NCBI GenBank assembly: GCA_038146885.1
Contig: JAYQSM010000005.1
Coordinates: 171,949-235,948, forward strand
From: Rhodospirillaceae bacterium
Lineage (GTDB): Bacteria; Pseudomonadota; Alphaproteobacteria; MPNO01; UBA2964
Direction: 5' to 3'
Length of the DNA stretch: 64,000 nt
Part shown: positions 13,673 to 43,751 of the stretch, in pieces
Layout: the number at the start of each line of letters is the position of its first letter
How positions within the stretch are numbered: position 1 is the first letter of the stretch
Made by a program: the position numbers and the translations under genes
Notes under the pieces: model-generated
The model's database searches: none
Seen by the model: only the letters and a program-made list of their open reading frames with translations
Told to the model about the DNA's origin: nothing

Positions 13673-14499
13673 TGAAACGCCCTCCGAACGTTCCAGGCCA
13701 TTACGGATTTATAATATAGGCTTCTTAAGATTGATCCATTGCTGCAATGTCAACATGATTTAGGTCAAGATAGTGAAGATAAATTTGCCTCGAAAACCGG
13801 GCATTGTAGCTGGGCTCACAAAACAGCATCGGCTCTAAAACAAAAGAAATAGAGACAAAAACAATGTATCAATAGGGTTTTTGAGGGTTTAAAAGGTATC
13901 GTAACTCTGCGCCTCGGGGATTTCTTTTTTTAAAATAGCGGCTAGTCTGCCGGATCCCGTGATTTCCGATCCACCTATCATCGAAAAAAGACGCATCATT
14001 CTGTCCTGGCGCTTTTTTAGCTGAAATTGATTGGAGAATAAGGGAATTAGTCACCATTTGAAGGCAATGTTATGCCGGTATGGATCTCGTTAATTGTATT
14101 TGATGAAAGTCATGTTTCTATTAAAATCACTATCCAGCGCACACTAACATTTCATCCTCCTGAGGTATTCTCCGACTGCACCTTCAATGATCTCCAATAT
14201 GTGACTCCATTTCATTTTCTAATCGATGGTGTTCGTTTTCTGATGAAAGTCGACTGGTTTTTTTGCAATTGAAAGGTCTTATCCCCTTTGCACCAAAAAA
14301 GTAACCCAGAGACGCCAATCCAATGTTCTGTCCTGTTTATGATATTGTAAACCTATACGGGCCCCGGGATGATATGTAACCTTGACCTTGAAATCCTCAC
14401 CTGACCTAATGATGGTGTGTGATCCCCAGGGGTCTGAAATATTTTGATTAATCCTCTCAAGTCCTTGATTCAGTTCCTGAGGTTTTCTTTGACTATTTT

Positions 14500-15558
14500 T
14501 TATTTTCTTGAGACACTATTCTTCGAAGAAACAAATACTGCATCCTCCGTGACAGCGACCACTGTGTCTTTGAGCCCCAGAGCTACCAGAAAGGGTCCCT
14601 CACTTCTCAGATAGCTGTTTTCAACGTCATCGGCCAGAACTTCTCCTACGATTACATTGTGATCTTCATCCTTTTTTCCCAAATCCCATAAGGACGACCA
14701 TGAGCCGATCGCCCCACCCCATGCTAATGGGAACTACTACTGACCATCAGTCTTTTCCATTACCGCTAGCATCGATTGACCCCAGCTGGGCATTTACCGA
14801 AAGCACTCATCTAAACGCAAAAATCTTTATCTTTACTGGCCTTGCATACGGCATCGCGAGCAGCCATCAGGGTTTCGACTAAATTTGAGTTCTTCTAAAT
14901 AGCTCTTGCAAGAAAATAGGAATAAACCGCTATTCCAATCATAGTTTCTTCCTTCCTCCACGAATGACTTGGCAAGCTCTAAAGGGGGCTTTTCAATAAA
15001 TTTATCAACTTCGAAGATCCTATCGCTTTTAGGGAGAGGGCGTCCTCTCTTTATGTAGCCATAACCTATTTCGGGCGATTGGGCCTTAATTCCGAAGGTC
15101 ACCAATTTACCCGAAGTTGCAATGGGCAATGCCTTTTCAACAGCTTGTATTAAGGCTTTTTTATTGGAGACAAAGTGATCGGACGGCAGCATTGTGGGAT
15201 TATAGCCTCCCTCATCAACTTTTGAGCTAAATGACGCCACTGCCGCGGCAGGTAGCAGGAGAGCGCTCTGGTTCAAGAACGATAGCATTGGCCTGGACTC
15301 CAATCTCCCTCAATTGTTGGGCTGCCAAAAATCTATGATCATTACACGACAAGGGAGGAAGAAAAACGTCCGATATACGCAACGCTGTTCTTGAAAAAGA
15401 GTGTGTTCGGGAAAAAGAGAAATGAACTGTTTGGTTTCATCCCGCTGAAAGCGGCCAAAAAGTCTAGTCCTGAGCCACCAAGGTAAAGAATTACGGGGAG
15501 AACTAAACTGTGGGCTAAAGTTTCCTATATATTTTAATCTACTCCCTCTGTTTTTCAA
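14500..15558 (-). pseudogene. manC: Mannose-1-phosphate guanylyltransferase (ManC) broken into at least three frameshifted pieces
   Basis: Fragment 15310..15558 has the N-terminal SRLWPLSR/PKQF-like stretch. Fragment 14833..15303 has the central nucleotidyltransferase region (LVTFGIKAQSPEIGYGYIKRG...NSGLFLF). Fragment 14500..14682 has a later segment. Confidence 0.55.
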
Positions 15559-16258
15559 AAACCTAAAGTTTAAAAAAAAAAAAAAAGATTTTCAATTTAA
15601 TGTATTTGATTTCGAAACTTCCGCATTGGGCCTTATTGAAGATTGTTTTGGCAAATAGTACCGCATTAATTGCCTTAATAGAAAAAATACGCCAACAACC
15701 AGTCCTTTTCAGTGGGTCCTGAAGTGCGGAATATTCCAAGTGAGGGAAATTTGAGTTAATGAATTCACTTTTCACATGAATAGCCAGAGCCATCATAGCC
15801 GAATTGGTTCCGAGTTTACTGATAAGGGACGTCAGAGTGATTGTTATCGATAACTAGAATTCTTAATACAATACCTGGTCAAAACACGTCCGAATATTTC
15901 GTTATTTTTAGGATTGCCGCCTGTTCATTAAGACCAATGTTACTGGCTCAGCTTCGACCGTTCCAGGCCCAAGGTGCATAACCTCCCATCTGAGTAAACC
16001 GAATAGCGGGAATGTTCTTATGGTCTGGAGCCAAAAAAAAAATTAAGACCAACATTTTACTAATGAAATAATAAAAGCTTTTTATTAATTAGCCAATTTC
16101 TGAGAGGTGCCAAAGATAATCCCCAGAGTTATAGAACGGACAAACAAATTAAGCAAATTCGAGCGAAGGACCTTTTGAATAGCACTCGGGCCCCGTAATT
16201 CTCAGGATAAACACCGGTGCTCAGAAGGAAAGGGTGCCAATTCGGCATTGAAGAGACC

Positions 16259-17590
16259 CTAAATGCCCAGGCGTCCCAAAGCTTTGCACGTCGTAGTCAC
16301 TAGCTTCTGCCATGGAAAGACCTTGAATAAAATAAAGAGCCCCAGCCCGAAAGATGTGCCATTTGACAGAAAAGCGGCCAAAGCAAGACCCGGAATCCCA
16401 AGCTCCCAATAAACTACAAAAATGATGTTGGCTAAAACCGCGGCAGCAACCCCCGCCCCACTAGTTAAGGTTACCCCCCAGTATAGCTGCCGTGCCTGAA
16501 GTCCACGGTATAAAATTGGGAGCGACATTATAAAAGGAAGAGAGAAGGCAAAACATTGCAAACAAAATGACGCCAGCTGAGTATCAACTTTTAGAAACTT
16601 TCCATAACCAAATAATAACTCAATCACAAAGTCAGCAGCTAACCAAAACAAAATCATGCCCCTGCGCCGGTTAACAGGGCTATTTGATGTATTTTAAAAA
16701 TCACTCTTCTGTCTTCCGCGTTCTGACAGATCCTAGCCATAAGTAACTGGTCCAGGTTCAAGACTCCCTTTGGAGCCATAAGTACCAAAGAAGCCAGGCT
16801 CATAGCTGTAACAACTTTTTCGCCGATAAACGCAGACATTCCCTTTTCAATAAGTAATTGCATGGGGGATAGGGAGGCAGCACAAATCATCGCCAAATAC
16901 TGACGTGTTATCACCCCGCTGAACTTACCACCTTTTAACCGAATTCCGTGGTATTTTCTCGATGCCAGAATCAAGGTAACAAGGGAAAAAAGCCTACCCA
17001 AGGATATTCCTAAGAGAAAGTGATTGGGGCTCCTAGGTCCGCGATAACCAGGGCAACAAATATAATCAACACAAAAAGGTTATTATAGAATTCTGAAACA
17101 AAGTAGGGTGTGTGGACATCTCTTGCTCTTAAAAGAGCCCCATAATGCTGAAAATACATACTGCCAAAAACATATGGAATAAGAATTAGGACAGAGGAGC
17201 AGAAATAATCCCGCTGAAAAAAATCAATCTGAAAATAGGATCCGAAGTCTATAAGACCAATTAATAAAAAAACAAAACATGCTATCACGGCAGAAACATT
17301 GGTGTATCGGGAAGAAGCGAAGAGGCTGTCTCTTGATAGTCCCTCTCTGATCTCTGGAGTGCCTTGACTAAATTGGGGACTCCTACGCTGTCGAGTGAGT
17401 CCGCAAAGATAAGAGGGAGAGCTGTCGCCGCAATCGCCAGAAATACCAGGTCTGTCTCGGCATTCGCGCCAAAATAATAGGCAAAAAGGCTTAACTTTAG
17501 ATACGAAAGGACCTAGAAACCAATGCCAGGCTGGCCGTCTGGGAGAGTAATCTTGAGAAAGAAGGTTTGATAAAACTTAAACTATAAGCC
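16259..17590 (-). pseudogene. wzx: O-antigen flippase (Wzx, MOP superfamily) broken into several frameshifted transmembrane fragments
   Basis: ORFs 16259..16657, 16654..17001 and 17010..17288 and further 5' pieces are consecutive hydrophobic polytopic segments collinear with Wzx. Confidence 0.5.
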
Positions 17591-19694: not shown

Positions 19695-20878
19695 ATGGCT
19701 AATACCGAAGGGAGAGGATTAGTAAGGCTCTCTCAATCAGGATACCTGAATCGACAATTCGATGTCATTAGCAATGCCGAAGATCTAGAACATATTTTTC
19801 TCTGGATGATTTTCCGGTTTTTTAGGTTGCACTGACCAGCCGATAGATAAAGACATCAAAGCTGAGATGTCATTTTCAATCAGCAAAACAAGCGGTTGCG
19901 TTCAGTTAGATAAATTAATTCCTCTACACATATTGTACGCAGAAAATCACGCTACTGTTGTAGGCGAATTATGGGAAAATCATCATAAAAAGTTTGCAGA
20001 ATTCTTGAACGAGTTAAATCCGTAAAAAAAATGTTCTTGAGATAGGTGGTGCCCATGGAATGTTGTGTAAAAATGTTCAGCTAACCAATCCTTCCACAAA
20101 TTGGACAATAATAGAGCCTAATCCAATTCCCGTTGGAAATGTCAAAGCCCAATACATACGGGGTTTTTTTGATAGCTCTTTCAAAACAGATGAAAACTTC
20201 GACATGGTCGTCCACTCTCACACCCTAGAGCATAGCTACAATCCACAAAAATTCATTTCCGATATTTCGAATATTTTATCTTGTGGTAATTTTCATTGCT
20301 TTAGAGTTCAAAACAAAGAGCACTGGCTTAGAAGAAAATATACAAACGCCCTAAATTTTGAACACACCTACTTATTGAATGATGTCTACATCGAGAATTT
20401 ATTGAAGAATAGTGGATTTGAGATCATTAAGAAACAAGACTTTGGTGACAAGCATTCTACATTTTATGCCGCTGTTAAAACTAAAGCAATTTCAGATAGA
20501 AGAGCTTCGTATTCGCAAAAAATGTACGACGACAACTTCAATTTGATATCAGCCTATAGAAGGTATCTAACTGACGAAGTTTCCAAAATCAATAATGAAA
20601 TTAGAAAACAAGAAGGCCCTGTATATCTATTCGGTGCTCATGTTTTCAGTCAAACACTTGTTTGCTTAGGTCTCGATACAAAGAACATCAAGTATCTACT
20701 GGATAACAGCGATGCGAAAATAGGAAAGAGGCTGTATGGAACCAATTTATCAGTTCAAAGCCCCAAAATTTTAAAAGGTGAAAAAAATCCAGTTGTAATA
20801 ATCAGAGCGGGGGCATACCAAAATGAGATTATTAGAGGAATTCGTAATCTTCACAATGGGAATACGGAGTTTATCTAG
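19695..20878 (+). pseudogene. NDP-hexose C-methyltransferase-type enzyme (putative zinc-binding domain plus C-methyltransferase C-terminal domain). The N-terminus is frameshifted and the large C-terminal ORF 20060..20878 is intact.
   Basis: N-terminal pieces near 19695 and 19865 (..SGCVQLDKLIPLHILYAENHATVVGELWENHHKKFAEFL..) resemble the zinc-ribbon/Methyltransf_13 start. ORF 20060..20878 carries the Methyltransf_14-like C-terminal domain. Confidence 0.45.
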
Positions 20879-21808
20879 TTTATCCCACAAAGGGATGTCC
20901 GGTGATCTGATTCATAGCGCTATAGCTTGTCGCTTTGATATGCCAAACCGCTGGGTTGACACATTTAGACTCTGCACTCCTATTCTACTACTGCTTGTTT
21001 CTATAAGTCATATGCACCCGCGGAAAGGCCTAAAAAGCGCTGACTACTCGGGCTTTGTGGATACAACTAGAGATGTCTTCCAATATATTCTGCTAAAAGC
21101 TTGCTGTCTTGGCGACTAAAAATTAGTTTCGTGAGCTGCTAAACTTCGCGTGTTTTAAAATTTAAAAATTTCTAGACCTTACTTTTCCAGAAACCCAAAC
21201 CTTCTGCTATTTTACCCCTGTGCATCCGAGCAGTCATCGTTATTTAAGGTTCGAACTCTCGTGAACCTGCAATCCTTCGTTGTAACGACCTTCTGATTCT
21301 CCCGCCAGTAGAACCTCAAATTACGTTGGAATGAAAGGCCTTTTTTGGCCCTTATAAATAAAGCCTCGTCTTTCAGGCCGAGTTTAAATTTCACATACTC
21401 CGTCCCTACAACAATCTCGACGCCCCGCTTATCTCAAAAGCGAGACAAGAAAACCATCAAAAAATTATTTGAGTTGAAAGCCGGTTATCAAAGTCGGCCT
21501 GTCCTCAAAATTCTTTTGACATGCCTGGATAGAACGATCGTCCACGGCACATCATTTCTTTACAACTACCAAATATGCAGAAGCCCAGTTCGGAAAAAGT
21601 CTGCAAATAAAATTATCCCCCATCGCAAGAAATCGAAAAATAGAACTGCCAAATCTTTTGCCACGAAATACGGCCTTAATAATTCTTCTGCCTCTGGATA
21701 TTGCCCCGAAAATTGGCCTTATAGAACAAATCTTAAGCTCCGATTTATTCACGGCTTTGACAAGGTTATCCTTGCTCCAGCCATCGCTCATAGTTATCAA
21801 AAATTAAA

Positions 21809-22129
21809 TTAGCTCTGATTTGATCCATATTCGGTATGAACAGTAAAGATGAAAGATCCATCCTTTTTTAACAAGCGTCTCACTTCATTAAGATAAAGTT
21901 CAATATTGTCCAAATATTCGAAAAGCCCGAAACAAGTAATAAAATCGAAAGACGAATCTCCGAAGGGAACCAACGAAGCATCTCCATTAATGAAAAATAC
22001 CGATGCCTTGCCTGTATATGTTTCTTTAGCCCCGCGAACCATCTCCAATGAAATATCAAGGCCGCAATAACACTGGGCCCGGTCTCCAAGAAAAGAGATG
22101 ACACGACCCACACCACACCCAAGATCCAA
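21809..22129 (-). pseudogene. SAM-dependent methyltransferase remnant (Methyltransf_11-like) with no N-terminus
   Basis: The 106-aa ORF begins directly at motif I (LGCGVGRV) and continues through ...FDFITCFGLFEYL...LLKKDGSFIF. I found no upstream continuation. Confidence 0.45.
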
Positions 22130-22298
22130 GAGCTTTCCACCGGGAAATCAAAGCCTTCCAGCTCAAAATTGATAGAATTGAGGAACGTTCTTTCTCGGTT
22201 GTCTTCCTCTCTTTAGGTAGGCCCCAACAAGAGAATTATAAATATCTGCTATTTGGTATTTTTCAGTCACCGCACGTATCAAATACCTTTTTTTATGT

Positions 22299-23447
22299 CT
22301 AGGCTTGCCATCTAGCCCCATAAAAGATTCGATCTATCCGAACATTATCCCTGTATTTTAGTACTAAATCCAAAAGCTCAATCAGGACTTCATCTGTAAG
22401 ATAATTTGGCTGCAGGCCCAATTCTGTTAAACCAGAGTGAACCGGATTATAGTAGTGATCTTCAAGCTCGACCCGAGGATTTGGAACAGATTTTATAGCC
22501 ACTCTCAGTCCCATCTTTTCCCCAGCTTTTTGCACTCTCTCCGCAAGATCATTAACGCTAAAGGTTTCTGTGAATTGGTTGAAGATCCGCAATTCTCCTT
22601 TCGGGGCCGGGTTATCTATAGCCAACGCGACACATTTGAGAGTATCTTTTATATTGAGAAAGCCCCTTGTTTGCCCTCCCTTTCCATACACAGTCAAAGG
22701 ATGACCAACTGCAGCCTGGACTATGAATCGATTCAAAACAGTCCCGAATAATTCGTCATAGCTCAGGAAAGGTAGTAGGGAGTCATTTCCATCTACCTCA
22801 TCCGTAAACACCCGTATACAGGGCCTTGCATTAGATCCGTCACTTGGAGTTCCCAGACCCGAACATAAAACCAAAGTAAGTCCGTATCCATAATTTTTGT
22901 TGTGTGGTAGAGGCTTCCTGCCTGTCGAGGATAAAGAAACTTTTGTTCACGTCCTTTATGCCGGATGTCTATCCATCCTTCCTCTATATCAATGTTAGGA
23001 GTTCCATACTCCCCCATTGTTCCAAGTTTTACTAAGTGGGCCTCTGGAGCGAACTCTTTAAGAGCAAATATTACATTTGCGGTAACGCTCAAATTATTGA
23101 TCAGAGTTTGGGTGGCAGCTCTCGGCTCAACATGGAAAAGGGTGCTGAGGGTTGCTCTGCATAATGGATGACATGATCTGGCCTAAACTCAGAAAAAACT
23201 TCAGCCATAAAAGTCCAATCTGAGAGATCCCCGACAAATGTTATTAGGGACCTATTGGAAACATCTCTCCAAATGTTAACTCTTTCTCTCAGATCAGGTA
23301 CTGAGTAGAGAGGCTCAACATCTTCGTCACGCACGGGTTACGCCGAAGATAGCTATCAACTACCGCTACCATCGCCTGGGCCGAAAAAAATTACAGCCGC
23401 TGGCCAGCCAAGGTAGCCATCACCACCTAATATCAAGATCCGCATTT
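22299..23447 (-). pseudogene. sqdB: UDP-sulfoquinovose synthase (SqdB/SQD1) homologue, frameshifted into at least four pieces
   Basis: There is very close collinear similarity to SQD1. The N-terminus MRILILGGDGYLGWP lies near 23447. The remaining fragments are 23101..23334 (FVGDLSDWTFMAEVFSEFRPDHVIHYAEQPSAPFSM), 22793..23092 (LVKLGTMGEYGTPNIDIEEGWI) and 22299..22874 (FGTVLNRFIVQAAVGHPLTVYGKGGQTRGFLNI...VPNPRVELEDHYYN). Confidence 0.7.
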
Positions 23448-23463
23448 AATGCTCCTGTTCTTA

Positions 23464-24442
23464 TCACCCGGCCAATATCTTGATGTATTGGACCGGAGGG
23501 CTTTCTGAGCAGTCCAAACTGTGCCAGAAGGTCGGCAATTTCGAGTGACCTAAACAATCCTCTGAATTAGAAATGTATGGTTTCGTAATACTTTCACTAA
23601 GCTGATCAGGATATCGATAGTTAATGTCGTTATAAAAACCCTTGAACGCCGGGAGAATACTGAAATATTTCTCAAGTTCTACAGTTCTGCGCGTTTCTTC
23701 GTCATTCATCAATTCCTCGTATAGTTTTTTCGCCAGGCTTAATGCTCATCTCTCTCGAATTTCTATATCACAGGGTCAAACCCGTATATACAGGGGCTAG
23801 TTCCTGAATCATTACTTGTGCCAAATCCAGAATGCGGACAACTGGCATTTTAGTAATAAAGACCTCGCCGCCGCGCGCCAAGAAAGCAGAATCTACAATA
23901 GTCTCACCGAGTTCTACACTCATAACAAAACCGAGTTTCCGCGTTTGATCTGTACAGTATAGGTCCCCCTTTGATATTTGATTATGGAAAATAGCACTAC
24001 GGACCCACTGACCCCCAACACATTACCGAAACGAGTGGAGGCAAACATAGTTCCCCCCGACCGCCTCGACCCGTTGGCCGCGGTCATCAATCTTTCGCCC
24101 ATCAATTTCGAAGTTCCCATCACATTTGTCGGGTTGACGGCCTTATCTGAGCTAGTAAAGATCACTTTCTCCACGCCGGCAGCCTCAGCGCACTCTATAA
24201 TGTTTTGTACGCCTAGAATATTAGTTTGCACCGCTTGCTCAGGGGATCTTTCACAAAGAACGACGTGCTTCAGCGCTGCGCAATGAAACACTAAATCGAT
24301 GCCTTTCATCTTGCGCATCAGCTCGTCCTTGTCCCTGAATGTCAAAGGAAAACAAATCTCGCGCGGTCGTCCTCAAGATATTCCTGGTCCAAGAAAACAA
24401 GTCGCTCTCGTTGTTATCAATGCCCACCAACTCTGAGGGCAA
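23464..24442 (-). pseudogene. pseB: UDP-GlcNAc 4,6-dehydratase, inverting type (PseB/FlaA1/CapD short form), frameshifted into at least four pieces
   Basis: Fragment 23920..24345 carries SSDKAVNPTNVMGTSKLMGERL...RFGNVLGVSGSVV. Pieces 24251..24442 and 23712..23919 (GEVFITKMP) flank it. Fragment 23464..23712 is the C-terminal tail. Confidence 0.55.
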
Positions 24443-24692
24443 TGTTCGCGATGTGAGAGCAACTGCCCACGAGCTCTGAACCTACAGTCCCAATAGACCC
24501 CCGTTACCAAAAACTGACTTCTTTTTCAATGACCAATTCAATCCATACCTTCCTCTAGAAAAAAGTCGATGGTCTTACCGAGCCCTTGTTCAAGGGGAAC
24601 CTGACAGGCCCAGCCAAGAAGAGAGAGCGCTTTTGAGGTATCGGAAAAATTCCGTCTTACCTCCCCTCGGCGAAAGGGGGTTCTCTCGACAT

Positions 24693-25400
24693 TTATCTCC
24701 TGATACCCTTTAGGCTCAGCGCCCTGCTCAGTTGCTCCAACATCTCCTGAACAGTAGTCTCGTTACTTGTTGCGATTTGAAAAATCTCACCTACCGCCTT
24801 TGGACTTTTTGCTGACAAATATATCGCCTCAACCAAATCATCAATATATATAAAATCTCGCGTCTGTGATCCGTCCCCGTATATCTCTATTGTTGCACCG
24901 GAAAGGGCTAATTTGATAAACTTGGCAATCACGCTTGTTTTATGTTTGGAACCAGGGCCGTATACATTACCAAAGCGCAATACAACTGTATTCACTCCAA
25001 ATGCGTGATAATAGGCGGAACAGTAGCCTCACCAGCCAGTTTACTGGCCCCATATGGGGAGGCCGGATGAGCCGGAGTGCCTTCATGTATAGGAGGCTCG
25101 ACATCACCTAGCGGAGCCCCGCTAGATGCAAATACAAATCTCTTATAATGATTAGATCGAGCCGCCTCGAGACAGTTAAAAATGCCCAAAACGTTGTTAA
25201 ACATATCATCTCGAGGATCTTCCAATGAAGGTCCAACACCCGTATTCCCGGCCAAATGGACAAAAATGTCGCAGCCTTGGGACGCGTGCAGAACCTGCTT
25301 GTAGTCAGTTATATCTCCCACAATCAACTCAACTCCTGAGGATGCGACATCGTCATATCGAGAGAACGATTCTGAAATGAAGTTACTCTGGCTAAGTCTT
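24693..25400 (-). pseudogene. NAD-dependent sugar epimerase/dehydratase (GalE-like), frameshifted, with a degenerate N-terminus
   Basis: ORF 24992..25327 has the central YxxxK region (PYGASKLAGE). ORF 24693..24995 has the C-terminus (RFGNVYGPGS...GDGSQTRDFIYIDDL). The upstream Rossmann region survives only as shifted fragments. Confidence 0.5.
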
Positions 25401-25519
25401 CTTTTTTCCCAACCTTAAGGTTATCAAAGACTCACAGAGATTCCTTTTTCTCAACTAATTTCCTAATTAGGGCCGTACCAATAAACCAGTAAACCACCTG
25501 AAATAAACCAATTCACGCT

Positions 25520-26465: not shown

Positions 26466-26496
26466 TCCGCAAATAAGGGCTGCGCACCCATTTTAA

Positions 26497-27576
<1,080 letters not shown>

Positions 27577-30787: not shown

Positions 30788-30941
30788 TCTTTTTCAACAC
30801 ATACACTTCGTTAATCCGACTAATTCCTTTCTTTGCCCCAGGGCTTCTCGATTACGTCACCTTTCTCCATCGCCTTACCCTATTAAATTTTAAATCGCAT
30901 ATACTCTGGATGGAACTTGAAAATTGATCATAAAATAATTT

Positions 30942-31704: not shown

Positions 31705-31709
31705 ACCGT

Positions 31710-33050
31710 TTAAATAAGTCGAAAGTTGCGAAGATAGCGCATAATGCCGGTTTTTATTCTCTCCTTGAGATAGATGTCCAGATCCACACCAAGACTGACG
31801 AGATCTGCCGCTGCCTGTTTCTTCAAATCAATCACTTCAGGTAGCGAAAAGACATAATGGCCGGCAATGATAGCCCGGTCTCGATCAGATGCTGAAGTAT
31901 TGTCCACCATCCATTTTGCCCATTTCTTGGATGCATAAGCAATCTCCAAGAACCTCTCAGAGAAATGGCATAAGCCGTTGGAGTCGAAACACTCAACCAG
32001 TGCCCTTGATTCTAGAACACCGAACTCTGGAGCGACATTGGCCGAATGGATTCCTAACCTGGGATGCCATTGCAAGGCCTCATCTGAAAGATAGTCAGTA
32101 TTATGCTCTTTTAGCAACACCCCATACTTTTCACAAACTTCCAACATCTTGGGTAGTTGGATCTCCGACGGTATTTCGTTTGGTACCCGAACAGGAGATT
32201 CGAAAGATCCAATATTGCGCATCTCCATTACGCGCGTTCCACACTGTACCACTACGAACGTTGGGAAGGGCAAATTATTCCCGGCACAAAACTCTTAATT
32301 TTCGTTCAGGATATAGTGCAACTCCTCCATAGAATTAGTGCTTCCGGACTGTTCTTCAGTCCCAACCTCAAAGATTATTTCTTTTCTCGCCCTTTGCGCT
32401 TCTGACCAGCAATAATCATAAAGGTCGAATACCCTTTCGAGGATTTCGTCTACGTCTGGCTGTCCATGAATATCCACGCTGGGATCTATATGCAGGATTT
32501 GAAAACCTGCCGTAATATCAGCCTTATAAGATGCTTTTGCGGAGTCCATCGCTTGTTTTAAGCTGAGATTTTGCTCCGTTTCCTTGTTGTTCTGCCAAGG
32601 CCCCCCATGATCACGTGCTAAGTATATTCTCCCTTTTTTATCTTTAGACGTGACATAATCCGCAAAATCCTGAGTGCACCAGTTATTGACGTAACCTCCT
32701 CCAAACTCTCTCGAGTCAATCTGTCGCCGACTCGCAATCATCATAATAGGTACGTCATAATCATTAGATAGTTCAATCGTTGCATCGACGCAGTTAAGAC
32801 TCATCGGCCCTGCCCCAAGCAGAGTGCATCTTCTTTTCTGGAGCAGAGTCTTTAAACGCCGCCCTATCACAGAGCCCACTTCAGAAATTTCAATTTGCTC
32901 ACCGGGAGGCAACTCAGGATTAAACGGTATAAAACCGATCAAGTACATGAATAGCCGCTTCAGCAACTGCGCGGTCTCCGCCAGAGCGCTCGGTGACGTA
33001 AGATGCATACTTCTTGGCGTTTCGGTCAGCATTTGAGGGTGCGATACCAT
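31710..33050 (-). pseudogene. GatZ/KbaZ-family protein (tagatose-6-phosphate kinase/tagatose-bisphosphate aldolase subunit-like), split by one frameshift near 32280
   Basis: ORFs 32295..33050 (...ETAQLLKRLFMYLIGFIPFNPE...NNWCTQDFADYV...DHGGPWQNN) and 31710..32273 together give about 430 aa collinear with GatZ/KbaZ. The true start is probably an internal Met, because the listed N-terminus overlaps the neighbouring gene. Confidence 0.45.
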
Positions 33051-33378
33051 ATCCCACCTTAGACATCACATAATGATCGAAAATTCCATCACCCATATAG
33101 ATCACCGACTGTAAACTGTATCTCTCGTCTATCCATTCTATCCGACGGATCGTACTGACAAGGTCGATTGGATATCCCATATCATCCGAAATACGTCTCT
33201 GACTAATGTCGAAACCTTTCTTATCCCCGGTCACGAAACGGATCTCGATATGGTTTCTCAGCAGCGAAAGGGCATCATGGTCATCAGGCCCAAAGACCTT
33301 GAAAACTTTCCCATCACGAGAGTAATAAAACTTCCCGTCCGTCATGACCCCATCAACATCAATTATAAAACATAACAT
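32920..33378 (-). CDS. KdsC-family HAD phosphatase (3-deoxy-ulosonate phosphate phosphatase-like)
   Basis: A 152-aa protein with the DVDGV start motif (FIIDVDGVMTDGKFYYS), ..FVTGDKKG.. and GDGIFD/YMGDG motifs characteristic of KdsC-like enzymes. Confidence 0.6.
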   Translation of the reverse strand: MLCFIIDVDGVMTDGKFYYSRDGKVFKVFGPDDHDALSLLRNHIEIRFVTGDKKGFDISQRRISDDMGYPIDLVSTIRRIEWIDERYSLQSVIYMGDGIFDHYVMSKVGYGIAPSNADRNAKKYASYVTERSGGDRAVAEAAIHVLDRFYTV

Positions 33379-33520: not shown

Positions 33521-34845
33521 ATGGCCCAACAAAAAATTAAAAGATCTGAAAATGGAGTGAATTTAATTTTCACTGCAATCTTGGTTGTATTGATCCCAAT
33601 GACCGATTTTAAGTGGGGTAACGTCAAATTAGCCGAAATTTACGCTATTTTTTTTGCGGTACTATTTGCAGGACCTGTATTTTACCGGGGCCTCCAGGAG
33701 AGAAAAATAGCTAACTTCTACAGGTCAATACTTGCTTGGATAGGATTTGTTCTTGCGACTGCCCTAATCTCCAATCAAGATTTTTCTTATATACCCAATA
33801 TAGAGTACGGATTTTCACAAAAGCCTTTCGTCATATCTTTCAGCAGGAGCCTTCAAATAATAATTGCAGTCACTATATCATTTTTTATCTTCGATTTTTG
33901 CCAGAAATCTCCGACGAATCTTGGAATAATCCTTTCGATATATAATGGAATCGGTCTGTTTAGCGTTGTATTTGGAGTTTGCGGATATTTGGCACTTAGT
34001 CGATGGGGGATTGATAACTGGGCTGCATATACCACCGCGGGAGGAGTTACTAGAGCCTCTTCTTTTTTCGGGGAAGGAGGACCGTGGGGCAGTTATCTTT
34101 GTAGCGTGTTGCTAACACATCGTCTGGTATTTCAAACTAACAAAACTCGGCTAGTATACAGGGTAATAGTCTACGCCATCTTGGGGTTGGGGCTTTTCCT
34201 ATCACAATCCAAAGCCGGATTAATAGTAGCTTCATTCTGTATTGGGATCGGTTACGTATTCTCAACTAGCCACGCAACCGATAATACGCTGCCGAAAACA
34301 GTTTTCGCTGCGGTTGCGGCCAGCACCGCCCTCGTTTTCGTGGTATTTTTTTCGGGAATTACCAATTACTTTTACGAATTTATTAATTTGACGGATAGTT
34401 GGGAGGTTAAAAGCACCAGCACGGCGCTGATAATGGGAAGAATCGCAGGGATGGTCATCGTTCCTCAGATGATTCTAAGTAACCCATTCTTTGGCATAGG
34501 TATTGGCAACTATCCTCTCTTGCGAAACGATCCTGAGTACAGCAGTTTCCTTATACAAGTCGATGACTGGGATCTTGACGGACTTGGCCTGGTAGGGTTA
34601 ACCGCAGAAACCGGACTCGTAGGTGTTTGTATCTTTTATATATCATGCTTAGAAAGTTATGGGACTTGAAAAAAGAAAGCGCAGGGAGGTCACGAAATCC
34701 TGAGATCCTGGCCTTGGCCTGTTTTCCGCTCTTTGCTTTTCTTTTTGGCGTCCAAATAACTTTCCTCTATCCTTGGTTCATCCTTTCATTAGCCCTTTCG
34801 GCAAACCATCTCAATCAGGTAAAGGAGAAGCGCAGTATTGATTAG
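33521..34845 (+). CDS. O-antigen polymerase/ligase family membrane protein (Wzy_C domain), with a C-terminal tail frameshifted into ORF 34627..34845
   Basis: A polytopic 382-aa ORF with a periplasmic-loop motif ...LSQSKAGLI... typical of Wzy_C proteins. A downstream hydrophobic ORF continues it in another frame. Confidence 0.5.
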
Positions 34846-34935: not shown

Positions 34936-36145
34936 TTGAATCAGAAAGTTATAGAAATGAAATCTGATCCCCCGAGCATAGACCATTGTCGGATTGCAGT
35001 GGTGCACGATTGGCTGACAGTCTACGCTGGAGCGGAAAGAGTGTTGGAAAACCTCTTAAGCGTGTTCCCTAGTTCAGACGTCTACACTTTGGTTGATACA
35101 ATGGGAAGCAGTGAAAGAAAATTCCTGCAGCAACACCAGGTATTTACCACTTTTTTCCAAAGATACCGGTTGCTGCGTAATCACTACCAAGTTTTCTCCC
35201 GCTAATGCCGATAGCAATCGAACAATTTGATTTGTCCAATTATGATATAATTCTGTCAGTCAGCACAGCCATCGCAAAAGGGGTTATTACCGGTCCGGAT
35301 CAGTTACATGTCTGCTATTGCAATACGCCGATGCGGTATGCTTGGGATCTGCAGCACCAATACTTAAAAGAGTCGGGGCTAGATAGAGGTTTAAAAGGTA
35401 TATTGGCGCGCTACATTTTGCACAAAATACGGATATGGGATCATCGAACTGCAGCGAGTGTTGACCATTTTATCGGTAATTCCAATTATATTGGACGGCG
35501 TATTAAGAAAATATACAGACGCTCATCAGAGGTTATTTATCCCCCGGTTGCACTATCTGATTTTACCCCGATATCAGAAAACGGGGCCTTCTATTTGGTG
35601 GTCTCAAGAATGGTACCCTACAAAAAGATCCTGCTTATAGCAGAAGCCTTTTCTGGATTGCCCAATGAAAACTAATTATCATTGGCACTGGACCCGATCT
35701 TCATCGGGTTAAAAAGGCGGCAGGAGACAATGTTTCGATTTTAGGTTACCAGCCCTTCGAAGTCGTTAGGGATTACATGCGGAGATCCAAAGCGCTTATC
35801 GTGGCGGCGGAAGAGGACTTCGGCATTAGCATGGTAGAGGCTCAAGCATGCGGAATACCAGTAATCGCATATGGTCGAGGGGGCTCTCTCGAAATTATTC
35901 GCGGAATGGAGCACAAAACCCCTACCGGGGTTCATTTTCACAAACAGGAAATTGGAGAAATACAAAGAGCTGTGAGGACTTTCCAGGACTCCCAGGGGCT
36001 GTTTAATAAAAACTATATCAGAGCAAATGCAGAACGTTTCTCGGAGTCAATTTTTCAGAAACAAATACTAAAGAGCGTTGCACTCGAATGGACCAAAATC
36101 CAGTTCGGGAACAATCGATTGTTAGGATCTTTTATCTTCATCTAA
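34936..36145 (+). pseudogene. Glycosyltransferase family 1 (GT4; WcaL/RfaB-like), broken into three ORFs by single-base indels
   Basis: ORF 34936..35205 has the N-terminus IAVVHDWLTVYAGAERV. At 35205, one missing c converts the conserved ...QVFLPLMPIAIEQFDLS into two ORFs. ORF 35777..36145 carries the C-terminal EDFGISMVEAQACGIPVIAYGRGG motif. Confidence 0.6.
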
Positions 36146-36288: not shown

Positions 36289-37528
36289 TTGGCTAAAGTT
36301 ATTGCGATGATAAATGAAAATCCATGCCCTACCTACTATCTTCACAATCCACACGTTTCAGGCGCCTGGTATGGAAAAACTATCTTCAATAATCTAATGC
36401 CGGCCAAAAAAAACAAAAATTATAGTAAATACTCTTTCCTTCTCGAAAATTCCCAAGGGCAGAATTACTCCGTTGCAATGATTTATGACGGGGGGGACAG
36501 CTCTTTTCCTGGTTTTAGGAGGCTTCCAACGGCACGGCTCAAAAAAACGTTGAGCAAATTTGAGGTTGAACAGTGGATTAAGCTAAACCGCTACAATCAG
36601 CGATACAACATTATTCAAGGGAAAGATGTCGAACCTACTGAGCAGGATGCTATTATCATTCAAATTCATGGAATTGAATCCAGTTATAAAACCCTACAAA
36701 CTTATATTTCCAAGTTTAAAAAACGTATCTTATTTCTAAATCACTTTTATATTAGTGCGAGGTCCCGATCCCAAATCGCGCAGGACCTCGGGATCAATTT
36801 GATTGTCTCAGAATGCGATCTATACAAACGCAGTGAATTATTCAGATCAATTTATCCATGGTATAAAAAACCGGTTCTCGCATTACCATATGCGTTTGGG
36901 GATAGATTCAAAAGCCTACGCCCTCCTTCGGAACGCTTCCCCGCATGTGTCGCTACAGGAACACTAGACTTTATAAAAGATCCAGAATACTTCAGAGACC
37001 TTCACGACCTAACAGAATCTCGCGTTCTACACCCAATGAGGCAGACAATATACGAAAATAAAACAGATCTCAAAGGCCTGATTGACTCATACATCTCCCC
37101 CTATCGCGCAGGGATTGAAGGGAGGGGCATGTTAGTTCTCCTCAGACAAACATTTCAGGATCCACAGCCTGAATATAATGCGATTAACATCGTTGATTTA
37201 TATAACAACTATCAAATGGCGGTCGTCCCCGAGGAAATTACCGGGCTCCCCGGAATAGGTATGGTGGAAGCAATGGCCTGGATGCGCCTACCTAGGTAGC
37301 CTGAGGGACGTCTATAAAGACATGGGTCTTGAGGATGGATTTTCATACATAGCCTATGATGGATCTTTGGACGGCCTGCTGGAGAAAATAAAATTCTACC
37401 AAAACCGACCCTCAGAGTTATTGAAAATAGGCTCCCGTGGAAGATCCCATGTGAGAAAACATTACAGCCGTGCAACTTCCTGTGCCCGTTTTTTTGGAGA
37501 AATTTCTGGATCGATCAACTGGGATTGA
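36289..37528 (+). pseudogene. Glycosyltransferase with a GT1/GT4-type C-terminus and a divergent N-terminal region, carrying one frameshift near 37300
   Basis: ORF 36289..37299 ends with ..LPGIGMVEAMAWM (the EX7E-like region). ORF 37322..37528 continues the C-terminal helices. Confidence 0.4.
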
Positions 37529-37742: not shown

Positions 37743-38984
37743 TCATCTAGTAGGCATTTTCCCTCTAATTAAGGCGAAGAACGTCATAATAATGATCTTT
37801 ACATCCAAGAAAATTGACCAGGAATTCATATAATCTATGTCAGACTGAATTCGCGCCTCCAAGTCATCAACACTTATATCCCCCTCCCCTAAAGCCTCGG
37901 ATCTGGGCCAAACCCGTAATCCCAGGCTTAACCTGATGACGTAACCAATAATCTTTCGAGGCCTCCCAAAATAATTTTTTCTCCGCCAAGGAATATAATG
38001 CATGCGGTCTAGGCCCGACAATGCTCATATTTCCAATAATAACATTTATGATTTGGGGGACTTCATCTAGACTCGTTTTTCTCAGAATACGGCCAACCTT
38101 AGTCACTCTGTTATCCTGTCGTCTTGTTCCCTCGGCTCCGCCGTTATCACTACTTTCGACATACATCGAACGAAATTTGAACACAGAAAAATGCTTATTA
38201 TTGCTACCGATACGTTTTTGAATGAACAATACAGGTCCTGATGACTCCAGGCGGATAAGTAACGCTATTATTGCCATAATAGGCAGAATCAAGGGCAGAA
38301 CGGCAAGGCAAAATAGCAGATCAAAAAGTCTTTTTTGAAACTTCTCGGCCCTGCTTAACCTTGCACGCGAAACCAATATTGTGGGCACACCAAGCCAACT
38401 TGAGAAACCTAGCGGGGCTATATTCCCTGCGGGTGTCTCCACAATCTCCGCGTTAACTCCGATCAACCTGACTAAAGAACACCACTGTGTTTTTACCTCA
38501 GAGTCATCAAATGCTAAAAGAACCCGATCGGTAGACTGAGTCAATATCGCTAGTTCATTTAAAAAATCAGGAGTTAGATTCCTTGATCCCAACCTTCTTT
38601 GTGAACGTCTAACATGGTTATCGATGGAGAAACAAAGATATCTTTTGATAGTCCTTTTTCATCTCCCAAGATAAATACTTTTTCTGAAATTATTCCTTCA
38701 AGCTTGTTTTGGATTAATAGGGCCAAGAGAAACCGGGAGCCCGATATTAAAATAAGACATCCAAGAACAATGTAGCAAAATTCGAGACGGGAATATTGGG
38801 AGCTTGTCTTGAGAACAAAGGCCATGGAAATTGCTAAGATGGCCGAACCAATTACAGCGATCACCGCCCTCTTAACTGAGAGCTCGCAATTTTTTAGAGT
38901 GTCAATCAAAAAAGCTTTACTAGCAATAGCGGCCACGCCATAAATTAAAGCTACTGAAATGAAAAAGATGGGTCCTTTTCCCAT
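37743..38984 (-). pseudogene. Polyprenyl glycosylphosphotransferase (WbaP/ExoY-type, initiating enzyme), broken into three pieces
   Basis: ORF 38574..38984 has the N-terminal membrane segment. ORF 37867..38592 has the catalytic core (FKFRSM...DELPQ-like DEVPQIINVIIGNMSIVGPRP). ORF 37743..38021 has the C-terminal end (..DDLEARIQSDIDYMNSWSIFLDVKII). Confidence 0.65.
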
Positions 38985-39371
38985 CCCAATTGCCCGTACC
39001 TCATTAGAGACGCAATCATGATCACTGTGATAAGGGAAAAACTATCCAAAATTATTGCCAAAAGGCCTATAAGAATTCTTATCCAGCTTGCACAAACTCG
39101 CGTCAAATAACCCAAATTAAGTCCTATCTAACTCATAAAATTCATAGAGATGGCAAGTACGTTAAGATTCAACAACTTTATTACCTCCCCGTCCTATTTA
39201 ATATTAACACATTGCCGAAGCAATGTACCATTATGGAAAGAAGGGTGAAATTTTTCTAAAATTGGCTACTTTTTGCACATAACATGTTCATCCCAGGTAT
39301 TCTAAATGTTTTAAAATCAACGGATACGCAATCATGAAATTCTATACATCCAAAGTCTGGTAAGTTATCCA

Positions 39372-40650
39372 ATGGGATCAAGAGTAGTGCGTTATTGTTT
39401 ATTTGGGATCATTCTGCTGTCCCCACTGCCACTCGGGTTAAACCGGCCAGAGATTTGGAATTTCGTCTGTATCCTAATAGGTATCCTTGGAATTTTTGGA
39501 TTAGTGATCTTCACCACAGATCGTACAGTACAGAGAAAATTAAAATTTTTGACGCTCCCGGGCGGTTTTACGTTGATCTTCTTAATATTTGTTCTGCTGC
39601 AGTCGGCAGATTTTCTCGGTTGGCTTGGCAATCCAATATGGAAAAATATAGCCTTGATTGGAGGAGAGGAAATCCCTGGAACGATATCCATCAACCCATC
39701 TCAAAGTATCTCGTCACTACTTGGTTATACCGCCTACATCGTGGTCTTTTTTTTAGCCTTTATCACAACAAGAAGAACAAAAAACACACTAAATGAGCAA
39801 TTGGTTTTCCTATGCGCCGGCATTATTTATGCAACTTACGGGCTCATTATATATTTCTCAGGAAACCAGAAAATCTTATGGTTCGATAAATGGGCCTATT
39901 TAAATGATCTAACCTCGGTTTTTGTTAATCGTAATACCTACGCGACCTTCTGCGGGTTTATAATAGTTTGCTCGATTACGTGCATGTTTGCGCAAATTTC
40001 TAATTTGCGCAGTGCATCAGTAAAATCTTACATTGGGAGTCTGAAGGGATTCTCATGGCCGCTCTATATAAGTATCCTTGCCTTTCTATTAAACACGATA
40101 ACACTGTTCCTGACCCACTCTAGGGGTGGGCTTTTGGCTTCTATTTGCGGGGTGCTATGCCTCTGTTTTATAATCCTAGTAAAACACAAGGAGAGAGGCA
40201 TTGGTCTATCATTAGCCGGGATTGCATTATTTTTCCTTCTCGGATTTGGATTATTTTTATCGGGTGAAACTACAATCCAAAGGATCTCCAATACCTCTGT
40301 TGACACCCTTCTCCGAGACGAGGCCTACCAGGCCATCTTAGTGGGGATCAAATCATCGCCGTGGCTGGGAACTGGTTTTGGAACATTTGAAGATGGTTTC
40401 AAAACATACTACACTGAGAGCCTTAATCATTTAAATTGGACGAAAGCTCATAATACTTATCTAGAGATATTTTTCGAGTTGGGGCTCATCTTTGGAATTG
40501 TGTTTTTCATTCCACTGAGTTTGGTCCTGTTTTTCCTTCTGCAAGGGTAAGAGTCGAACACGACACTATCTTTTGCCCGGGCTGGGACTTTCACTAATTG
40601 TTATTTCCGCGGTACACGCATTATTTGACTTCAGCAACCAAATCCAGCGC
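39372..40650 (+). CDS. O-antigen ligase family membrane protein (Wzy_C/WaaL-like); the main ORF is 39372..40550 and its C-terminal tail is shifted into another frame
   Basis: A polytopic protein with LTHSRGGLLASICGV (the HSR-G-L loop). After the stop at 40550, the conserved tail ..ISAVHALFDFSNQIQRL continues in a different frame. Confidence 0.55.
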
Positions 40651-40852
40651 TTGCGCTAACTTTCTCATGGCTAATCGGAACACTCCTATCACACGCACAA
40701 ACTTCCAGTCGAAACTAGTCCCAATTCTAGGTTTGTTAGTTTGATTGGTCAGATAATATAGGGTCCCATCTCACAAATTGAGGACAAGCGCCGGTTCCTT
40801 CCCCAATAAGACATCGATTTAAAATAATTAATAAGCGCTGGCGTCCAGCATT

Positions 40853-41290
40853 CTAGGGTTTCCGTAGAAGATTGAAAAACTCAGTAAGTAAGGGTAGATC
40901 ATTCAGTAAGCCATAGGTGGCCATTACTCTAAAGGCCCGAGATCTCTTCGCCGCGATAATAAAAAGATCCTGCCGATACCTAAAACCTGCCCGAATTAGA
41001 GGTATATAGCGCGACTTTTCTATAAATCTGAGCCCCTCCCAAATACCCTCCAATGTTAGTAGACGAGTATAATATAATGGCCTGATGTGAGGTCCAGTTT
41101 CGATGGATAGATCTAAACAATTATGTGCCAGTTCCTTATTACCCAATCTTAGGTAAAGATGCGCTAGCCTCGCTAGTTCATATGGTTTTGCAGGCGACAT
41201 CGATAATCCTGTAAGTAAAAGTCTTTGGCGAGCAATCAGATTCTGCAATGAGTGACGGGACCCGACATCATTGAAACCTAACCTAAGCAA
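40853..41290 (-). CDS. Hypothetical protein, possibly helical-repeat; a small signal-peptide ORF lies just upstream near 41335..41511
   Basis: A 145-aa ORF with no recognisable motif. The upstream roughly 59-aa hydrophobic ORF (MRLKALMVLGVIAISLSLAICS...) may be its frameshifted N-terminus. Confidence 0.25.
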   Translation of the reverse strand: MLRLGFNDVGSRHSLQNLIARQRLLLTGLSMSPAKPYELARLAHLYLRLGNKELAHNCLDLSIETGPHIRPLYYTRLLTLEGIWEGLRFIEKSRYIPLIRAGFRYRQDLFIIAAKRSRAFRVMATYGLLNDLPLLTEFFNLLRKP

Positions 41291-41525
41291 ACACGTTCCT
41301 GCAAGAAATAGAAACTGGATTGTGGTGCAAAGCTAGAGCTTTGATATTGCTGAGGAAATACCTAGATATTGTGCTTGAGTGGGGTTCATAACCCCCAAAT
41401 CAAATTTTACAGAGGACAAATACAGACCAGCAACAAGTCTCGAGAAAGAGCAGATTGCAAGCGACAGGCTTATAGCTATGACCCCCAATACCATTAGGGC
41501 TTTCAACCGCATTTTCGACAGATAT

Positions 41526-43751
41526 CAGCCAGAGTAGTAGCCTTTATATTTTCCGTAGTAATATCCCTGATCGTAATAGCCATAATACCTTTGTTTCTTC
41601 GCATCAACCTGACTTTACCATCCCTGCAAGGGGCAAATGGGAGTCAAGAGCTAAGGCAGCACCCGTCTTAACGAGATCTTTTGGTGTAGCGCCCCACTTA
41701 ACCACGTAGATCACTTTATCAGCCAACTGAGGAATGACTCGAGCCTCCGCTACAGCTAGCATCGGAGGAGAATCAATATAAATCAAATCGTATTTATCCC
41801 TGAATTTTTTCAAAAGGTCGGCCATTCTCGCCGATGATAAAAGTTCCAGGGAGGAGCCTCCAGCGTCATCGGCTGGGATTACGAACAAACCTGTAGACCC
41901 TACCTGTTGGGTCGCTATTTCTGGACCATATTCACCCGCAAGAACGCCTACCAAATTAAACTCTTTCTTAATCTGAAGACTTGCGTGGATGGTGGGTTTC
42001 CTGAGGTCACAATCAATTATCAAAACCCTCTTTCCAGAAAGCGCACTTTGCTGCGCCATCCAGAGCGTTATTGTTGACTTTCCCTCAGACGGAGTGGAGG
42101 AGGCGACCGAGATCACTTTCGGAGGCTTGTCTACATCTGACAACTGAATTGCGGTCGACAAATTTCGAATGGACTCGGAGATCGTAGATACCGGATCCTC
42201 TACCACCACCTTTGCGATCGCCCTGCGCCCGAGTACAGACTTAACCAGGGGAATAGCCCCCAATACGGGAATACCAACTTCTAGTTCTAGTTGCTTTGCA
42301 GACCTATAACTGTTCTGCATACGCTCCAAAACATATGCAAATAAAAGTCCCAGGAACAAACCACTTATTCCGGATACGATTATAAAGGTTTGCTTATTAG
42401 GAAAGCTTGGCAAAACCGGGACCGAAGCACGCGAGATAATCCTTGCATCTGCTTGTTGCAAATCCTCCTGAGAACTTGTTTCTTTGAAACGATTCAAGAA
42501 ATTTGAATACAGCAATTGGCTTGCTTTTGCCTCTCTTTCTAATTCTCGAAGGCGTATGGCTGCCCTATTTTGTTTTTGGTTGCGCCCTTCCAGCCTATCC
42601 AAATTTCTCTGCAAGGTTGCCTCTCTAGCCCGGGCAACATTCATCTCATTCCGGAGACTTTGAGCGATTTTTCTGACCTCGGTTTCTATCGACTTTCGCA
42701 AATCCCTGAGTTCGTTCTTTGCCTTAAGCATGTTTGGATGCCGAGGACCGTATCGGGACTCCAACTCCGAGACCTTTCTGATCACCTCTGCCTCTTGAGC
42801 CCGGAGGCGTTGGATAAGCATTGAATTTAGGACCTCAGCGGCTGAGGCTAAATTCTGCCCACCCGCCTTCAGCAGGGTTTCTATCTGGTCGAGGCGCGCC
42901 CTGGCTTCTGCGCGTTTTGTCTGTGCCAAAACCATTTGGGTATTCAAGCCAGAAATTTGTTGGGCAGTGATATCGGTCCGTTGACCAAGCTGCGATGACA
43001 TGTTCACACGAAATTTCTCAACCGCTTTCTCAGCTGTCTCCACTTTTGTCTTTAGCGTGTTCAGCCTCTCGCTCAGCCAGTTAGTTGCCCGTTTTGTTGC
43101 CTCGAACTTTGCCTCCAATTGATCCACAATATAGAGATCCGCGATTGTGTTGGCGATTCGGGCTGCTTTCCTGGCATCCAAAGACGTAAAGCCGACCTGT
43201 ATTACAACAGATCGCCTAACCGGTGAAACCACCAGATTCTTTTTAATTTTTTCTACGACCTTTGTTTTTACAAGTGACTTCAACTCAGCTTCTGTAAGAT
43301 TTTCTGGTGGTTCCGATAGCCCGAGAACCACTAGCCAAGTCTCCGGGAGATACTTGATCGGATTCACGTATGAAGCCCACGACGATGATTTTCCAAGGTC
43401 TGGATTAAATTCGGGGTCTCCATCCAATCCTAATTTGTCAACCAATCGACTCAAAAGAGCCCCAGACTGAATCACTTGGTTTCGCTCAGTACCGCTGTCA
43501 TTTCCGGCGAAAGGCCTGACGCCAACGCTCTCTATGTCCGTAACTTTGTTTTTACGCGTTTCAATCATTACCTGCACATTAGCGGTAAATTGTTTCTTAA
43601 GCTGAAACACCGTCAGTGTTCCCAAAATCAGCACAAAAACGGCGGTCGCAAGGATTACTGCTCTCCTACGCCATAGAGCAAACAAAAAACCTAAGATCTT
43701 GCTCTTCTTCAACCAAATTGCGCGCCCCCGATCTGTTCGGAGAAGGGCCAT
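41526..43751 (-). CDS. wzc: Polysaccharide co-polymerase/tyrosine autokinase (Wzc/ExoP-like BY-kinase). The C-terminal tyrosine cluster sits in a different frame (41526..41612).
   Basis: The 715-aa ORF 41604..43751 has an N-terminal transmembrane segment plus a Wzz-like periplasmic domain, a long coiled coil, a second transmembrane segment and a P-loop ATPase (VASSTPSEGKSTITL). The Tyr-rich tail QRYYGYYDQGYYYGKYKGYYSG is encoded immediately downstream but out of frame. Confidence 0.8.

Follow-up and report, generated by a model that had tools for sequence, protein, structure and literature searches.

The 64,000-nucleotide stretch of contig JAYQSM010000005.1 from a Rhodospirillaceae bacterium (assembly GCA_038146885.1), called here the window and numbered from its first letter, contains a cluster of surface-glycan genes, almost all of which are cut by frameshifts. 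The cluster occupies positions 13673–44821 (31.1 kb) and, judged from the comparison of sequences, is a strain-specific, replacement-type surface-glycan island of the O-antigen or exopolysaccharide type, lying in a metagenome-derived contig and belonging to an already known kind of island. It should be pointed out at the outset that the frameshifts described below are, in our opinion, very probably errors of the consensus sequence and not features of the organism's DNA.

Gene content and boundaries of the glycan island

The island presents a gene set of the Wzx/Wzy type, recognized by the Pfam matches of its frame-corrected proteins. It covers sugar-nucleotide enzymes, glycosyltransferases of the families GT1 and GT4, a MurJ protein, two Wzy_C proteins and a Bac_transf protein, as well as a Wzc-like AAA_31 domain and the remnant of a Poly_export gene. 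The individual genes, with their strand and lesions, are as follows (Viterbi denotes the frame-switching coding model described in the next section; SDR, short-chain dehydrogenase/reductase; L-numbers denote related contigs or other homologous loci).

14145–15503, minus strand, ManC (GDP-mannose pyrophosphorylase/mannose-6-phosphate isomerase type); 13–17 frameshifts in 1.36 kb, the densest spot
16313–17512, minus strand, MurJ/Wzx-like flippase; at least 4 frameshifts, PF03023 1–406 of 451 when stitched, aligned against the MurJ of L091
17650–19375, minus strand, polysaccharide-deacetylase-like and Methyltransf_23 genes; several frame switches (Viterbi only)
19713–20875, plus strand, Methyltransf_23/C-methyltransferase of the 388-residue type; 3 frameshifts (19792, 19824, 20023)
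21555–22330, minus strand, Methyltransf_11 gene; about 3–4 frame switches (Viterbi only)
22308–23445, minus strand, 390-residue SDR epimerase/dehydratase; 4 frameshifts, 62% identity to an open reading frame (ORF) of L059, Pfam match
23448–24500, minus strand, Polysacc_synt_2 (CapD/FlaA1-like dehydratase); about 9 frameshifts
24553–25414, minus strand, NAD-dependent epimerase; 2 frameshifts
25531–26480, minus strand, second GDP-mannose-dehydratase-like SDR; 2 frameshifts
26524–27579, minus strand, GDP-mannose 4,6-dehydratase (Gmd); 4–6 frameshifts (27327, 27149, 26967, 26803, with a possible pair at 27308/27303)
27813–28835, plus strand, GT1-family glycosyltransferase; no lesion detected, a close homologue for comparison lacking
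28939–30515, minus strand, fusion of NTP_transf_3 and an APH kinase, 523-residue type; at most 5 frameshift calls (4 of them tightly spaced insertions, not each confirmed), 57% identity to L091
30521–30870, minus strand, cupin of the 118-residue type; frameshifts 30825 and 30788 near the N-terminus, the 91-residue ORF being the C-terminal part
30886–31704, minus strand, conserved hypothetical protein of 274 residues; 4 frameshifts, 70% identity to L091
31713–32870, minus strand, GatZ/KbaZ-like protein of 389 residues; zero frameshifts, one extra in-frame TAA codon (32295–32297)
32883–33369, minus strand, HAD (KdsC-like) phosphatase of the 180-residue type; frameshift 32928
33521–34815, plus strand, first Wzy_C gene (O-antigen polymerase/ligase-like); frameshift at about 34620–34660
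34936–36142, plus strand, GT4 glycosyltransferase; frameshifts at about 35196 and at 35668
36289–37441, plus strand, hypothetical/glycosyltransferase-like protein; frameshift near 37279, against a weak homologue (35% identity only)
37750–39010, minus strand, Bac_transf initiating sugar-phosphate transferase; 2–3 frameshifts
39372–40712, plus strand, second Wzy_C gene; frameshifts 40536 and 40643
40859–41497, minus strand, hypothetical protein of 230 residues, conserved beside Wzc; N-terminal third in other frames (41291–41340)
41531–43751, minus strand, Wzc-type tyrosine kinase/co-polymerase; frameshift at about 41615 and a compensated +1/−1 pair at 43523/43479
43850–44623, plus strand, Metallophos phosphatase; no lesion detected
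44639–44907, minus strand, wza (Poly_export) remnant; residues 1–29 and about 112–172 of the 172-residue protein of the sister strain

Five of these genes, at 28939–33369, coding for the HAD phosphatase, the GatZ/KbaZ-like protein, the 274-residue hypothetical protein, the cupin and the NTP_transf_3/APH fusion, form a conserved module that is syntenic with positions 3595–8060 of the JGI contig L091, at 57–71% identity, and is probably an uncharacterised activated-sugar pathway; GatZ-like homologues of 389 residues are counted in thousands.

Concerning the boundaries, the blastn comparison with the related contigs L001–L006 and L087 gave no nucleotide counterpart for the island, the homology stopping at 13672 on the left and restarting at 44822 on the right, there with 96% identity. 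The segments 1–13672 and 47250–56435 of the window exhibit 90–94% identity to related JGI metagenome contigs. In the comparison with related genomes, which had been recommended in the first-pass annotation of the window, the island is strain-variable, with an interior either different (L001/L087) or absent (L003–L006). The former strain, a sister strain represented by a single 71.9-kb contig (L001/L087), has the genes for AsnB and Ugd on the left and is 96% identical rightward from 44822. Between these shared flanks it carries a different island with genes of normal length, and this analogous island is present on 4–6 contigs. The Wzc end is syntenic with that of L087 but diverged, the identities being 62% for Wzc, 51% for the phosphatase, 41% for the 230-residue protein and 40% for Wzy. 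In the four contigs L003–L006 the whole of 13.7–47.2 kb is absent, and so are AsnB and Ugd (9.0–12.6 kb), the epimerase being joined to the amidohydrolase via a spacer of about 830 nucleotides (e.g. L003 9173–10000); the locus is therefore polymorphic in the population for presence and absence besides replacement.

The right edge lies within wza, from which 247 nucleotides are absent between two GGTTCC repeats, with the junction at 44821/44822, i.e. at the very point where the identity to L087 falls from 96% to about 72%. Its sequence suggests that this junction may be either a scar of microhomology-mediated recombination left by island replacement or a chimeric join of the assembly. There is no sign of a mobile element in the island, since no tRNA gene is present in the 64-kb window and no integrase, transposase or insertion sequence (IS) domain occurs among the Pfam matches of the island proteins, albeit no search aimed at IS elements was made.

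The same site between conserved flanks thus bears different gene content in related strains, and in this respect the island resembles the replacement flexible genomic islands, or 'metagenomic islands', of aquatic bacteria, in which strains have, at one site, either different genes of one functional class or no such genes. Such replacement-type surface-glycan islands, together with their under-recruitment, have been described for aquatic bacteria (PMC4033161, PMC3909814, PMC2800850). In contrast to the 'metagenomic islands', the rarity of the present one can be inferred only from the lack of relatives with at least 90% identity in public protein and contig collections. No second copy of it was found in the collections searched (5.8 billion proteins and the JGI contigs), a scan of metagenome contigs with Wzc returned zero relatives, and the protein clusters of the island have one member each, while the NrdB cluster has 57. 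The best matches anywhere reach 37% for the first Wzy, 73% for Gmd and 71% for the GatZ-like protein; a Gmd scan of genome contigs gave 70% at best and served as the source of intact homologues. The ORFs of the window are on record on one NCBI contig only, without protein accessions, and a cluster mate of the flanking epimerase (90% identity) bears the name 'MAG: ... Rhodospirillaceae bacterium', MAG standing for metagenome-assembled genome.

Mapping and extent of the frameshifts

The lesions were mapped in two ways. A codon-usage model was trained on intact genes and run as a frame-switching Viterbi search over the region, across which the coding signal is unbroken while hopping among the three frames of one strand. 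Intact homologues were taken from 80 genomic loci around Gmd genes, from the sister-strain contig L087 and from the syntenic sugar module of L091 (with ManC, HAD, the GatZ-like protein, the 274-residue protein, the cupin, NTP_transf/APH, a methyltransferase, a glycosyltransferase and MurJ), and were aligned to the window by a frameshift-aware protein-to-DNA dynamic programme. It should be noted that the single-base status of a lesion was judged by frame (steps of +1 or −1), an event of two nucleotides with opposite sign being formally possible at any site. Calls made against weak homologues of 30–35% identity are probably excessive and have not been counted; these are 43689 and 43290–43406 in Wzc (versus L041/L084), 35117 in the GT4 gene and 36669–36885 (F3).

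Once stitched, the proteins span whole Pfam profiles in one piece, as seen for Gmd (PF16363 1–332 of 332), Bac_transf (1–178 of 179) and the pair GT4 and GT1; stitched matches were obtained also for the second Gmd-like SDR, two more SDR epimerases, Polysacc_synt_2, three methyltransferases, MurJ, ManC, the GT4 glycosyltransferase, both Wzy_C proteins, the cupin and the NTP_transf_3/APH fusion. The PF16363 score of Gmd, 417 bits with crude stitching, rises to 452 bits with the homologue-guided correction. In the same protein, at 27529, Arg-Ala (GAC AGG GCC TAT) takes the place of the Gly-Ser that homologues have at the third glycine of their GxxGxxG NADP motif; two substitutions would account for this, and so, equally well, would one inserted A together with one T deleted a few bases away.

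All the single-base indels detected in the island fall between 14160 and 43523, about 65 of them being homologue-guided and at least 10 more being indicated by coding-frame switches in parts for which a homologue was lacking. Altogether, one-base indels, at least 75 in number (about 75–90) or about 3 per kb, disrupt approximately 24 of the 26 genes located at 14.1–43.5 kb, and the ORFs at about 13.7–41.6 kb are nearly all shorter than 200 residues, those of the flanks having 300–715. The homologue-guided alignments that yielded about 65 frameshifts extend over about 21.5 kb; the formal count, made on 14.7 kb, gave 46 (3.1 per kb). In the part of the flanks that could be checked against relatives, there is one frameshift in 22.9 kb versus 71 expected at the island rate (P = 6e-30). 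This sole flank frameshift is the following.

51996–51999, plus strand, Rieske oxygenase alpha subunit; CCCC here versus CCC in 3 relatives, the ORF having 404 residues here versus 455 in the relatives

The genes for AsnB and Ugd are of special importance here. They belong to the flexible glycan genes but are common to the strain of L001, with AsnB 100% identical in amino acids, and they carry no lesion versus 11 expected at the island rate (P = 1e-5). The zone of indels thus lies inside the unique segment, and the shared sequence—AsnB and Ugd, the outer membrane protein and the flanks—is clean. Because AsnB and Ugd, flexible yet shared, are unharmed, the damage, as far as the sequences tell, is tracking the absence from co-occurring relatives rather than a dispensable glycan function.

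The picture given by the first-pass annotation needs, in this light, to be both retained and amended. Its statement that the glycan genes of 13.7–41.6 kb are fragmented with length and order kept agrees with the ORF map and the full Pfam profiles, as does the intactness it ascribed to the left 13.6 kb with the absence of any frameshift relative to the proteins of relatives across 13.7 kb. The damage does not, however, end at 41.6 kb, being found in Wzc at about 41615 and again at 43523/43479, and the proposed one to four indels per gene have to be replaced by a range from 0 to about 14, with ManC and the Polysacc_synt_2 gene at the upper end. The single frameshift it placed on the right side of the island is that of the Rieske gene, but the 247-nucleotide wza deletion at 44822 has to be added. 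One base said to be missing at 35205 in the GT4 gene does, when added, join ...NHYQVF to LPLMPIAIEQ; the site itself, however, lies at about 35196–35199 (GTTTTC/TCCCG), i.e. about 6–9 nucleotides earlier. Finally, the five ORFs considered to read through do not do so, as the HAD phosphatase, the cupin and both Wzy proteins are frameshifted near an end at the sites listed above, and the ORF at 40853 is the C-terminal two thirds of the 230-residue protein. Between the two members of the compensated pair in Wzc, the other frame gives SGLSPEMTAVLSE where the sister strain has SALSPELAAVLGE; about 15 residues are in the wrong frame and no stop arises. Since this pair is hidden inside an open frame, the damage is under-counted if judged by the intactness of ORFs alone.

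Spectrum of the lesions and their probable origin

All the frame changes could be modelled as +1 or −1, with the length and order of the genes kept. Insertions are about as frequent as deletions, with a ratio of 20:21 for the first 41 sites and of about 35:32 for all, and a homopolymer run of at least 4 lies within 3 nucleotides at 34% of the sites versus 22% of random ones (p = 0.05), the positions of the sites being uncertain by a few nucleotides. The lesions are strongly over-dispersed (chi-square p = 3e-5): their local density spans 0–10 per kb, ManC having about 10, the Polysacc_synt_2 gene 8.6 and the right half about 1.5 per kb, and several 1-kb stretches having zero. No stop codon of the substitution type was found in about 7000 homologue-aligned codons. 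The only certain in-frame stop, the TAA at 32295–32297 of the GatZ-like gene (GAAAAT-TAA-GAG), is an extra codon compared with the 389-residue homologues at 70% identity and is therefore likewise an insertion event; one more stop, in ManC, is ambiguous. Multi-base or large deletions inside genes were not found, the full profile length being kept.

Natural decay predicts nonsense codons, multi-base deletions and repeat-associated indels, unlike what is seen here, and consensus error is therefore favoured. It is thus most likely that the dense frameshifts are absent from the DNA of the organism, being residual indel errors in the consensus of a MAG-like contig where it crosses a strain-variable glycan island. 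Of the two readings offered by the first-pass annotation, the one invoking consensus error in a hypervariable island agrees with the unshared segment and the indel-only, balanced spectrum, whereas pseudogenisation with a rough phenotype found no support. The consensus for the island would have been built from thin, indel-prone data, possibly of the long-read type, and that for the flanks would have been built or polished from many more reads, as the co-occurring relatives share those segments; with island reads coming from only one strain, stochastic +1/−1 errors would persist. As causes, we infer shallow read coverage, the sequencing platform and unsuccessful polishing, and the balanced, nearly position-independent and substitution-poor spectrum suggests noisy long reads at low depth rather than a well-polished nanopore consensus. 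Unpolished long-read metagenome assemblies have been found to contain 474 indels per 100 kb, compared with 22.8 after short-read polishing and fewer than 2 in short-read assemblies (PMC6487183); the density in the island, about 300 per 100 kb, is near the first of these values. Coverage, platform and assembler have been documented as causes of spurious pseudogenes (PMC11017572, PMC12007338). The island resembles the spurious pseudogenes of long-read or low-coverage assemblies in the preserved length and order of the genes, the single-base cuts and the cleanness of the well-covered sequence; it differs from them in having its errors in a single 30-kb block instead of contig-wide, with only a weak preference for homopolymers and with as many insertions as deletions.

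Several observations weigh against consensus error. The cause has been deduced solely from the pattern of the lesions, and with no second copy of the island in the searched collections no base is checkable against an independent sequence. A really decaying island would equally nest within a strain-specific segment, the weak homopolymer bias and the balance of insertions and deletions are unlike those of a classic polished nanopore assembly, and the wza deletion resembles a genuine recombination scar, which alone would disable export and could relax selection. The frame-corrected Gmd, moreover, scores about 70 bits below nine homologues and departs from them at 9–10 of 178 near-invariant columns versus 0–5 in controls (5–7% versus 0–3%), the controls not being divergence-matched, which could mean extra substitutions. 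The GatZ-like protein, however, although unshifted, is equally distant, its nearest match among 5.8 billion proteins standing at about 70%, so much of the distance of Gmd is probably lineage divergence.

These points lead to the possibility that the genes are genuine pseudogenes, i.e. that the recombination which brought in the island truncated wza, export died, selection was relaxed and the genes have been decaying, leaving a rough or unencapsulated surface. We consider it unlikely, despite the limitation of the lesions to the strain-specific island, the wza deletion between repeats right where the identity to the sister strain falls, the residue oddities of Gmd (e.g. the Arg in place of the third Gly) and the homopolymer frameshift of the core Rieske gene, which could be real. 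With the codons used here, 4.0–4.6% of random substitutions would give a stop, and at a substitution:indel ratio of at least 5 the 14.7-kb aligned set should hold at least 10 nonsense codons (P(≤2) ≤ 3e-3); the expectation of at least 10–14 compares with none of the substitution type, and just the one inserted TAA, alongside about 65 frameshifts. In mutation-accumulation lines of wild-type Vibrio, the indel rate is about one-fifth of that of substitutions, the indels lie mostly in simple repeats, deletions exceed insertions 2–3 fold, and single-base indels make up only 20–36% (PMC5854121), whereas the indels here are all single-base by frame, balanced and almost randomly positioned. Deletion bias, multi-base indels, losses of several codons and IS elements (the last among the Pfam matches, no dedicated search having been made) are not seen, the sole larger event being the wza deletion at the island edge. 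Neighbouring genes differ from 0 to 10 lesions per kb, and AsnB and Ugd of the same flexible glycan region are unharmed. The O-antigen cluster of Yersinia pestis, in which a handful of genes is reportedly inactivated by frameshifts or deletion, as attributed to Skurnik and colleagues in 2000, is similar in being a frameshifted glycan cluster with the gene order kept. That cluster, however, has few lesions and for the rest hardly differs from a functional relative, whereas the present island shows about 75–90 lesions, with as many as 14 in one gene, lacks nonsense codons and has no intact relative that is close.

An artefact of another sort, slightly less likely still than natural decay, would be, instead of mere low depth in a long-read assembly, a consensus collapsed from two or more diverged alleles of co-occurring strains, or a gap in a short-read assembly filled by one or a few uncorrected long reads during hybrid scaffolding. 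The abruptness of the change, error-free at 13672 and reaching about 1% indels by 14.2–15.5 kb, and the block-wise uneven density speak for it, and the wza join at 44822 could mark the passage from a majority-strain consensus to sequence of a minority only. Collapsed alleles should, however, give mosaic substitutions and not clean one-base indels, no second allele of any island gene was found in the 5.8 billion proteins or the JGI contigs, and indels of 0.1–1% are far below the error of raw long reads, so some consensus was made. Even more doubtful is the reading in which the indels are real, a freshly acquired island crippled by the wza deletion being eroded by a local, indel-specific mutational process that would spare the shared glycan neighbours; if true, the strain would be locked in a glycan-less, possibly phage-resistant surface state. 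Functional recoding—programmed ribosomal frameshifting, transcriptional slippage or phase-variable contingency loci—can practically be dismissed. Nothing specific favours it except a few sites in A6–A7 or T6 runs (23388, 23728, 25600), the contexts of the 41 mapped sites have no common slippery motif, only 10% of them being near runs of at least 5, and there are up to 14 shifts per gene in both directions; to our knowledge, no system recodes at such density. Residual consensus error in the strain-variable island is thus the explanation preferred here.

Neighbouring genes and consequences for the genome

The genes adjoining the island on its two sides, all free of lesions, are the following.

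6327–13672, minus strand, CapD-like protein, Bac_transf, AsnB-like protein, Ugd and UDP-glucuronate 4-epimerase; conserved or shared glycan genes, all intact
44930–47029, minus strand, BBP2 beta-barrel porin and Ala-rich repeat protein; intact, 94–97% amino-acid identity to the sister strain

The Ala-rich secreted protein (46217–47029), 97% identical in amino acids in the sister strain, contains about 10 copies of a 45-nucleotide unit (46338–46801) with 93% matches and no indels, in a patch of 55% GC; the opposite strand of its gene yields a spurious Pro-rich ORF of 215 residues.

If the frameshifts are an artefact, the annotation of about 25 genes as pseudogenes, or as some 90 small ORFs, would be wrong. 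The practical upshot is that the segment of 14.1–43.6 kb should be re-polished or masked, and that annotation should start from the frame-corrected translations. Should the indels be real, on the other hand, a surface-glycan locus would be decaying through indels only and at an unusual density, which would need a new mutational explanation. The finding as it stands counts for the quality control of genomes and not for biology: errors of MAG assemblies can gather in strain-variable islands, ecologically the most interesting regions (phage receptors, glycotypes), with the standard whole-contig quality measures looking fine, and if that has happened here, it would be wrong to conclude that this bacterium has a 'rough' or decaying surface or a genome undergoing reduction.

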